A DNA stretch of 64,000 nt from sequence record PP400778; one strand, written 5' to 3'. Each line of letters starts with the position of its first letter. The first letter of the stretch is position 1. The position numbers and the translations under genes were made by a program. Positions 35,705-38,978 of the stretch are shown here, piece by piece. Under the pieces are notes generated by a model. The model was not told the origin of the DNA. It saw only the letters and a program-made list of their open reading frames with translations, and ran no database searches. The DNA comes from Escherichia phage FL15.

Positions 35705-36018
35705 TATCCTAAAATCCTCACCTTGCGAACACAGATAGTATTGAGTTCTCGCCGTACCCGTTCTTTTTCATATTCAGGAATTTTATATTCGATACCATCC
35801 CGAACAATTTCAGAAGACCGGATTATGCCAAATTTTCGTTTAGGTACAACCTTGTATTTCGGTTCACCCGCCAATAGACTCTCACAATAATCTATCTGAT
35901 CACACATTGACGCTAACGCAGCATCATGTGTTTCGCAAGTTAGGACGCGACCTTTCGCGTCCACTGAGTATTGAAAGAATCCGTCTTTATCACGATAACA
36001 TACAGCAAATACATGCAT
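35704..36018 (-). CDS. hypothetical protein
   Basis: 104-aa ORF. Confidence 0.45.
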   Translation of the reverse strand: MHVFAVCYRDKDGFFQYSVDAKGRVLTCETHDAALASMCDQIDYCESLLAGEPKYKVVPKRKFGIIRSSEIVRDGIEYKIPEYEKERVRRELNTICVRKVRILG

Positions 36019-36773
36019 TATAAACCTACCTTCGCTTTCATCAATTCAATCCACGACGCATCAATCGGAAGCCCGTATTTCACGCGTTCTTTTTGTGCTG
36101 GCGTTAAGTTCTCATACTTAGAAAGAGATTCAATCAAAACGCTGGTATATTTTAGCACGATTTCGGTATTGTTTGCAATAGCCTTAAGTTTTTCTTCTTT
36201 CTTGTTGATTTCGCTAAGTGCTTGCTTGAGATCTGCAATTTTCTGATAACGTTCTTCCATACGGAAGAGAGTATTTTTAATCGCTCGCTCGGCTGCCTCT
36301 GCTTTCTCCGGTTCGTTGTGCTTTTTGTGGCGCTCGATTGCTAATTTCTTTTCTTCGATTGCCATTTCCTGATTTTTGATGCGATTCTCGTTAAGTTCGA
36401 TCCACTCGATGTACTTCGCACGTAGGGCAATTTCATCATCAGAAAGTTTACCGTTAGTTCCTAGTTCTTGGATCTCTTTAAGAGATTCGATAGTGTGATT
36501 GCCACGGAAAGAATTATATTTCAGTTTAACCGGAATTACATTGCCATCAACATATCCCAGATTGCAATCAATGCGCTCTAAGGAGAGTCCGTCATCACCT
36601 TCACCGAAAGCCTCACCTGAATAGGCGCAATGAGTCTGACGGTAAATGTTACGCACAGTGACTAAGCTCATAGAGAAGTCTTTGTTGCGACGTGAAGCGC
36701 CAGCCATGATAGAGTTCAGACGGAAAACAACCAGCGCCAATTCTTCGTTAGATTTAAAAGCAAACAGTTTCAT
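36018..36773 (-). CDS. hypothetical protein with coiled-coil C-terminal half
   Basis: 251-aa ORF, leader AAGGAGAATCAATT; Glu/Lys-rich heptad-like C-terminus; in the T4 srd/mod region but identity not established. Confidence 0.5.
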   Translation of the reverse strand: MKLFAFKSNEELALVVFRLNSIMAGASRRNKDFSMSLVTVRNIYRQTHCAYSGEAFGEGDDGLSLERIDCNLGYVDGNVIPVKLKYNSFRGNHTIESLKEIQELGTNGKLSDDEIALRAKYIEWIELNENRIKNQEMAIEEKKLAIERHKKHNEPEKAEAAERAIKNTLFRMEERYQKIADLKQALSEINKKEEKLKAIANNTEIVLKYTSVLIESLSKYENLTPAQKERVKYGLPIDASWIELMKAKVGL

Positions 36774-36834
36774 AATTGATTCTCCTTAGTTGGTATGGGT
36801 GTATTATTGTCTATCTGGTTTGTGCTGTCAACAC

Positions 36835-37338
36835 TTAAATTAAAGAAAATTTGTAAATCTCTATCAGATCGCCATTACACGCGTAAACTTCCTCGATCTC
36901 ATCAAGGATCATGGTCGTCCCTGTCTTGTATATGCACTCGCGCTCATCTGCCAACATAGCATACAAAGACAGTCGAGTAGTCGGATTGTCATACTCTTTA
37001 GACACCACTCGGTCAATAGCATGTTCGTAATAATTCATGCAAGGCTTGGTAGGTTTTATTGCAATAATCTTTCCTGTTGCATAAACATCGGTTGCAAAGT
37101 CCTCTGCTGTTGATTGCAGTGGCGTAAAGCTCATAGGACGCTCTACAACGAAAGAATCACCAACAATTAAGGTATCCAGCTTACGGCCTTCTCTTTTGCT
37201 CACACCGCGATACAAGGCTTCATGATGCACTAACCGCTCAGTCTTTTCAATCAATCCATTAAGGATCGACATATCGATATTTTCTTTAGAGTTCATCACC
37301 TCATCAATGATGTTAAGTTCTTCTGGTGTAAATTGCAT
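36835..37338 (-). CDS. hypothetical protein, possible ADP-ribosyltransferase-like (ModA/ModB position)
   Basis: 167 aa; YRG, S-T-x and E-x-E-like elements in the expected order; weak. Confidence 0.4.
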   Translation of the reverse strand: MQFTPEELNIIDEVMNSKENIDMSILNGLIEKTERLVHHEALYRGVSKREGRKLDTLIVGDSFVVERPMSFTPLQSTAEDFATDVYATGKIIAIKPTKPCMNYYEHAIDRVVSKEYDNPTTRLSLYAMLADERECIYKTGTTMILDEIEEVYACNGDLIEIYKFSLI

Positions 37339-37340
37339 AA

Positions 37341-37371
37341 TAAAAAAGCCTCCAATCTTTCGACGGGAGGC
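37341..37371 (-). terminator. intrinsic terminator after gene 56
   Basis: Minus strand GCCTCCC-loop-GGAGGC hairpin followed by TTTTTTATT. Confidence 0.55.
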
Positions 37372-37400
37372 ATAATAAAACCATGATAGAGTAGTGTCAA
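37372..37400 (-). promoter_or_regulatory. sigma70-type early promoter
   Basis: Minus strand TTGACA (37395-37400), 17-nt spacer, TATTAT (37372-37377), overlapping the terminator. Confidence 0.45.
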
Positions 37401-37407
37401 CTAATTT

Positions 37408-37932
37408 TTAGTAGCCGCGTTCTTGACGGGCGAAGTTTTCAGCATTTTTCAGATAGTACAGAATAAAGAGTTCTTGAGCGTCAATACCCAGCGGGATCAT
37501 CTTTGACAGAATGAAGTGGATCGCGTCCACAAATTCAAATTTCACTTCAAGCTGATCTTCTGGTGACAGTTCAGAGAATTTACGCGCTCGCGCTTCCCCG
37601 TGGTTCTTTTTCCACATTTTCCAGATTGCACTTGCATCTTTACCATTGGACATTCCACCCAGCGATGTGTAAAGCTCTCGTGTTTCGTCTGCGATAGCGT
37701 CATCCATCCGTTGCATCCAATCCAGCATTTCACCGCAAGTCTCTAGCTTAGTTGGATTTGGGACCCAATCAAATTTTTCGGATAGTGCAACCTGCAAACC
37801 AGTTTGCATTTCTAGCATCACCTGAAACGGATCTTTACCTTCTGCAATCGCGTGATGATATGCGGCGATAGCCGCGTTAATATCTTTTTCGTTAACCAGA
37901 CCAGCACAAGAATTAAATTCTGACATATTCAC
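37408..37932 (-). CDS. 56: dCTP pyrophosphatase gp56 (MazG-like)
   Basis: 174 aa; matches T4 gp56 (KDP.QVML.MQ, KLET.G.M..WM, ASA.WKKWK, SPEDQLE.KFE.VD..HF.L, LYYLKN.ENFARQ.RGY). Confidence 0.9.
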   Translation of the reverse strand: MNMSEFNSCAGLVNEKDINAAIAAYHHAIAEGKDPFQVMLEMQTGLQVALSEKFDWVPNPTKLETCGEMLDWMQRMDDAIADETRELYTSLGGMSNGKDASAIWKMWKKNHGEARARKFSELSPEDQLEVKFEFVDAIHFILSKMIPLGIDAQELFILYYLKNAENFARQERGY

Positions 37933-38969: not shown

Positions 38970-38978
38970 AATAACCTC

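Follow-up and report, generated by a model that had tools for sequence, protein, structure and literature searches.

A short Mod-family ADP-ribosyltransferase gene between srd and gene 56 of Escherichia phage FL15

Does a small early-region gene of Escherichia phage FL15 encode a host-modifying enzyme of the kind known from phage T4? The gene lies in a 64,000-nucleotide stretch of sequence record PP400778 (hereafter the window), whose DNA is 99% identical to that of Krischvirus phages (kaaroe, kvi, ECD7, Phi1 and others) and whose source is a Krischvirus, an RB49/ECD7-like T4-type coliphage. It occupies positions 36835..37338 on the minus strand as an open reading frame (ORF) of 167 amino acids plus stop, with its ATG being the first in-frame start past the upstream stop. 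A first-pass annotation made from the letters of the window had placed this ORF between a coiled-coil protein and gene 56, in the slot that T4 gives to ModA and ModB, and had proposed on admittedly weak motif evidence that the product might be ADP-ribosyltransferase-like. The position and length hold, the coiled-coil protein is Srd, and the T4 order srd-modA-modB-...-56 agrees with the proposed slot. Our analysis shows that the window protein is a true member of the phage T4 ModA/ModB (Mod) family, and with a probability of roughly 85% it is an active Mod-family mono-ADP-ribosyltransferase (mono-ART) of the R-S-E clade, most likely an early-expressed and arginine-specific enzyme whose substrates would be host proteins of transcription or translation.

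The PHROG 832 profile ('RNA polymerase ADP-ribosylase') matched the window protein at E=1e-20 over residues 2-153, with the match falling at profile positions 1268-1423 of 1480. BLASTP against T4 ModB gave E=8e-11 with 33% identity over the 113 N-terminal residues, and hhalign against T4 ModA gave E=4.6e-5 over 132 columns with the ExE region included. A tblastn search of 50,697 phage records found 58 records at 95% identity or more and 432 below 60%, and the features beneath the matches listed are nearly all annotated as ADP-ribosylase, ModA or ModB. Precomputed assignments of the Pfam family PF26816 (Mod_ADP_RT) were found on metagenomic homologues at 99, 74, 63, 49 and 38% identity, the carriers being P0001 (the one 99% identical to the window protein), P0002, P0003, P0004 and P0006. 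Searched exhaustively with HMMER, 1.84 billion representatives yielded only 25 at E≤1e-3, so the family is a small one; a word-indexed protein search found just three relatives. The matches P0013, P0018, P0019 and P0024, which are 995-2067 amino acids long with 5-13 short matched stretches, were set aside as probable repetitive or unrelated matches.

We aligned first 25 and then 30 sequences of the family; T4 ModA and ModB were among them, as were the Mod genes of HX01, CLB_P2, S16 and phiC120. In both alignments the only invariant columns besides the initiator methionine and K18 are R44, G45, S70, E132 and E134, and the active site of such enzymes with arginine specificity is described by the motif R-S-EXE (PMC10468400). 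The Y43-R44-G45 codons (37204..37212, minus strand) hold the 'R' of this motif, the predicted arginine for binding of nicotinamide adenine dinucleotide (NAD), with R44-G45 corresponding to R73-G74 in T4 ModB and R72-G73 in T4 ModA; the ModB R73A/G74A mutant is catalytically dead (PMC10468400). The 'S' (S-x-S/T) motif is S70-F71-T72 (37123..37131, minus strand), in which F71 is nearly invariant and which aligns with the STS of the Vis toxin (4xzj). The ExE motif is E132-R133-E134 (36937..36945, minus strand), aligned with the EQE of T4 ModA and ModB and with the ExE of Vis, where E134 would be the catalytic glutamate and E132 occupies the arginine-specificity position, a glutamate at −2 of ExE being the arginine-specific signature (PMC10468400, PMC2988021, PMC3014915). 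The protein also has a second ExE-like element, E147-I-E149. The first-pass annotation had listed an aromatic-Arg (YRG), an S-T-x and an acidic E-x-E-like element in that order, and of these the first and the last are present as described. Its S-T-x is probably S76-T77, since S76-T77-A78 is the sole literal instance; this triplet is not conserved and the catalytic serine is instead S70 in S-F-T.

The motifs by themselves are indeed as weak a guide as that annotation had cautioned. A loosely ordered pattern of them occurs in 11.6% of shuffles of the window protein and in 13 of the 52 window ORFs of at least 120 amino acids, although with family-like spacing the figure falls to 0.07% of shuffles and the ORF stands alone among the 52. 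The loose motifs do not go beyond what chance yields; it is homology and fold that give the observation its meaning. The same counts, together with a Pfam scan in which no ART family appeared, are what could be said for chance motifs in an unrelated small early protein, but all homology and fold tests oppose this explanation, which is refuted by the PHROG 832 match, the AlphaFold2 model and the fold comparison and retains next to no probability.

The AlphaFold2 model, built from a 23-sequence alignment, has a mean predicted local distance difference test score of 95.1 and a predicted template modelling (TM) score of 0.88. R44 lies within the strand 42-45, S70 lies within the strand 69-72 and is followed by a helix at 75-85, and the ExE stands at the junction of the helix 119-132 and the strand 135-137. 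A Foldseek comparison with viral models placed phage Mod proteins on top at TM scores of 0.84-0.93, with ModB-labelled and ModA-labelled proteins both among them. The window protein therefore has, in its predicted structure, the ART fold of the R-S-E clade. The first-pass annotation had suggested structure prediction as a check and had named the lack of a predicted ART fold as grounds for rejection; that objection falls away, and its ADP-ribosyltransferase reading is supported by the PHROG 832 match, by PF26816 on the homologues, by the invariant residues and by the fold.

Knowledge of the family describes NAD+ binding and transfer of ADP-ribose to arginines of host proteins (PMC10468400, PMC2988021, PMC3014915). 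By analogy the window protein would be synthesised early, probably from its own sigma-70-type promoter, and would bind NAD+ via R44 and S70, with E134 and the E132 of the ExE then moving ADP-ribose to arginine side chains of host proteins. Its targets, if they resemble those in T4, would be RNA polymerase alpha on the transcription side, S1, EF-Tu and trigger factor on the translation side, or both, and their modification would aid phage takeover of host gene expression.

Several observations weigh against an active enzyme of this kind or temper it. Among the papers searched, none reported experiments on the Mod enzyme of a Krischvirus or of RB49. The window protein is without about 29 N-terminal residues of ModB and about 10-13 residues before the ExE, and the missing residues could alter or narrow substrate recognition. 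A profile search against PDB sequences was non-significant, its best matches being ARTs all the same (Vis at E=0.075, for which the YRG, STS and ExE segments align with those of the family, and XopAI at E=0.22), and phmmer of the window protein against the same sequences gave no match. A scan of Pfam-A found no ART family and only a sub-threshold DUF5507 (E=0.13), and an NCBIfam scan left the window protein without a match. The Pfam and NCBIfam negatives are uninformative, because T4 ModA and ModB were likewise unmatched in the same scans; the former is apparently an artefact of the library version, with the PF26816 model apparently not in the scanned set. The shorter length relative to the characterised Mod enzymes, along with the occurrence of the ART-like effector XopAI among the structural and sequence neighbours, might also be taken to indicate a catalytically dead ART-fold pseudo-enzyme that acts through host-protein binding, as has been proposed for some ART-like effectors. 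We regard this as highly improbable given that R44, G45, S70, E132 and E134 are invariant in the whole family and in all clade members, even at 38% identity, which is expected of an active enzyme.

Which of the T4 enzymes the window protein would stand in for is harder to assess. T4 ModB (NP_049636, 207 amino acids) is an arginine-specific mono-ART that also attaches RNA to (RNAylates) S1 and L2, and T4 ModA (NP_049635, 200 amino acids) is a mono-ART directed at Arg265 of RNA polymerase alpha. Were the window protein an orthologue of ModB, it would have S1, EF-Tu and trigger factor as its ADP-ribosylation substrates and could in addition link NAD-capped RNA to proteins (RNAylation). The window protein has PHROG 832 and PF26816 in common with ModB, its R44/G45, S70 and E132/E134 standing against R73/G74, S99 and E171/E173 there with an equal R-to-S spacing of 26 residues, and the two have an early-gene neighbourhood between srd and 56 in common. 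Pairwise it is also the closer of the two (26.8% identity to ModB and 23.1% to ModA, with the BLASTP match at 8e-11), tblastn reaches T4 modB and not modA, and most GenBank records carry the modB label. The similarity to ModB, however, ends at residue 113, and the window protein is 40 residues shorter. In a neighbour-joining tree the window protein and P0002-P0006 (161-176 amino acids) were monophyletic in 54 of 60 bootstraps, but this short clade paired with T4 ModB alone in 0/60, so that orthology is not demonstrable, and with T4 ModA alone likewise in 0/60. With no replicate joining the short clade to T4 ModB by itself, the public 'modB' label is a best-match name and not an established orthology. 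The basis of RNAylation in ModB but not ModA is, moreover, not known (PMC10468400), and so this capacity is not readable from sequence. We therefore treat orthology to ModB as a doubtful proposition.

A functional equivalent of ModA would act on Arg265 in each of the two RNA polymerase alpha subunits and weaken UP-element and activator-dependent host transcription. The gene sits in the srd-proximal slot, as modA does in T4, the family and its motifs are those of ModA (R72, S95/S97 and E163/E165 in that protein), and the hhalign match spans 132 columns with the ExE region included. The phage also seems to have no other Mod gene. The family hidden Markov model (HMM), run against all 418 six-frame ORFs of the window, found one member, the 167-residue ORF, and no second Mod or Alt gene, and the Krischvirus records among the tblastn matches listed have a single match each. 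A diverged alt gene has been reported in RB49-type phages (PMC1524935), and completion of the alpha modification would be a plausible role for the Mod enzyme. The tree affinity to ModA is nonetheless weak, with the short clade, P0023 and T4 ModA grouping in 35/60 bootstraps, possibly through long-branch attraction as T4 ModA forms a long and isolated branch. Identity is just 23%, the N-terminus of the window protein is shorter, and gene order is an unreliable guide, the best match being the srd-proximal copy in CLB_P2 and the upstream copy in HX01. Equivalence to ModA is in our view as doubtful as orthology to ModB.

On sequence comparison the short clade of 161-176 residues appears distinct and groups with neither T4 ModA nor ModB, and it is found as the sole Mod gene in Krischviruses and in some uncultured T4-like phages. 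One might speculate that it represents a third functional type besides ModA and ModB, with targets of its own or with a combined specificity for RNA polymerase and translation factors. Its minimal catalytic core, which dispenses with about 30 residues at the N-terminus and with the insert before the ExE, could be a natural comparison in tracing what lets ModB use NAD-capped RNA.

Beyond the Mod proteins the window protein shows just 8-21% identity to bacterial R-S-E toxins and effectors (VIP2, the iota-like CPILE-a, Vis, Certhrax, C3, HopU1, SpvB and ExoS). It differs from these in having no secretion, translocation or binding domains and in being the product of a phage early gene that would act inside the infected cell, and in the model the helix 119-132 reaches the ExE motif. 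T4 Alt (682 amino acids), a head-packaged and injected ART, has the R-S-E clade and PHROG 832 in common with the window protein, but as a virion protein it is large, its N-terminal part is long, and its gene lies near genes 30 and 54. Unlike head-packaged enzymes of the Alt/VIP2 type, the window protein is a stand-alone catalytic domain of 167 residues encoded in the early region.

The Mod identity of this gene was already known and our result is a correct rediscovery, as public annotation precedes it. In RefSeq ECD7 a protein of identical sequence bears the annotation 'modB; RNA polymerase ADP-ribosylase', and the label recurs in Phi1 (EF437941). The analysis confirms that the phage has a gene for a probable host-modifying enzyme akin to ModA and ModB, and its residual value lies in the observation that the widespread label reflects best match and not orthology, and in a short single-copy clade that offers a handy minimal enzyme for questions of Mod-family target choice and RNAylation.

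The setting of the gene is that of a Mod gene, in the early region near srd, dda and gene 56. Its downstream neighbour (36018..36773, minus strand, 251 amino acids) is Srd (PHROG 1400, E=6e-74), beyond which lie a dda.1/Y01A homologue and then the Dda helicase. Upstream are gp56, the dCTPase/nucleoside triphosphate pyrophosphohydrolase (37408..37932; PHROG 173, E=5e-37), and the gp61 primase. The window thus reads 61-56-mod-srd-dda.1-dda, for which the T4 counterpart is dda-dda.1-srd-modA-modB-...-56-...-61, and ECD7 and metagenomic relatives have the same synteny around mod as the window. In T4 the interval from srd to 56 (L001:3287-7770) covers about 4.5 kb and holds modA, modB, modA.2-4, srh, mrh, mrh.1-2, soc and segF, whereas in the window (36774..37407) a single mod gene is flanked directly by srd and 56, and the srh/mrh/soc/segF block is wholly absent from this place. 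Short-clade Mod members of uncultured T4-like contigs occupy the matching place (61-56-...-Mod-dda.1-dda).

Upstream of the ORF we found a promoter-like site of the sigma-70 (T4 early) type, TTGACA-17-TATTAT, at 37372..37400 on the minus strand, which agrees with the consensus at 11 of 12 positions and would be the source of early synthesis. Four diverged relatives all keep the -35 TTGACA, and their -10 reads TAT(T/G/A)AT. Directly after this site comes a GC-rich hairpin, GCCUCC...GGAGGC (37348..37371), which together with a run of six U forms an intrinsic-terminator-like element at 37342..37371 on the minus strand (-15 kcal/mol, z -3.0 to -4.4) and whose 3' arm contains the GGAGG that serves the mod ORF as ribosome-binding site. 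The DNA matches of the gene are limited to 58 near-identical Krischvirus records, and covariation was for this reason drawn from the metagenomic protein relatives. The layout of promoter and hairpin is kept in four of these at 74-38% protein identity (L008:618-703, L009:560-644, L010:3922-4009 and L011:3922-4009), and changes in the stem keep pairing, with U-A becoming C-G in L009, a U·G pair in L010 and a different, longer stem in L011. We infer from this layout that promoter and terminator overlap upstream of mod. The hairpin could stop read-through from gene 56, or mask the ribosome-binding site within such transcripts, and RNA made from the embedded promoter would have its 5' end at or past the 5' arm and so would neither terminate nor mask the site. 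A second promoter-like site, TTGACA-17-AATAAT (11 of 12 matches), lies upstream of srd at 36803..36831 on the minus strand, 3 nucleotides past the mod stop codon, with GTGTTGACA and ATAATA retained in both L008 and L009.

A number of further observations concern the neighbouring genes. In Srd the N-terminal ~100 residues have further matches, to PHROGs of the HNH/endonuclease VII type (E=1e-10 to 1e-12) and to the 'decoy of host sigma70' PHROG. In RefSeq ECD7 (L002:3799-4362) an HNH homing endonuclease gene sits between the gene of a 67-residue ORF and the primase gene, while in the window only 9 nucleotides (38970..38978) separate these two genes and the ECD7 endonuclease is absent, so that the HNH endonuclease beside the primase gene is a presence/absence polymorphism within the genus. 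In two of the metagenomic relatives (L010:4001-4907 and L011:4001-4803, with Mod proteins at 49 and 38% identity) the dda.1 (Y01A) homologue directly follows Mod with no srd between, unlike in the window and in T4. The latter, a T4-like metagenomic contig of 169 kb, has between 56 and Mod (L011:1997-3932) a Mom-like gene, a Tad2-like gene (a weak match) and an N6/N4 DNA methyltransferase, a block which is an insertion with a DNA-modification and anti-defence flavour.
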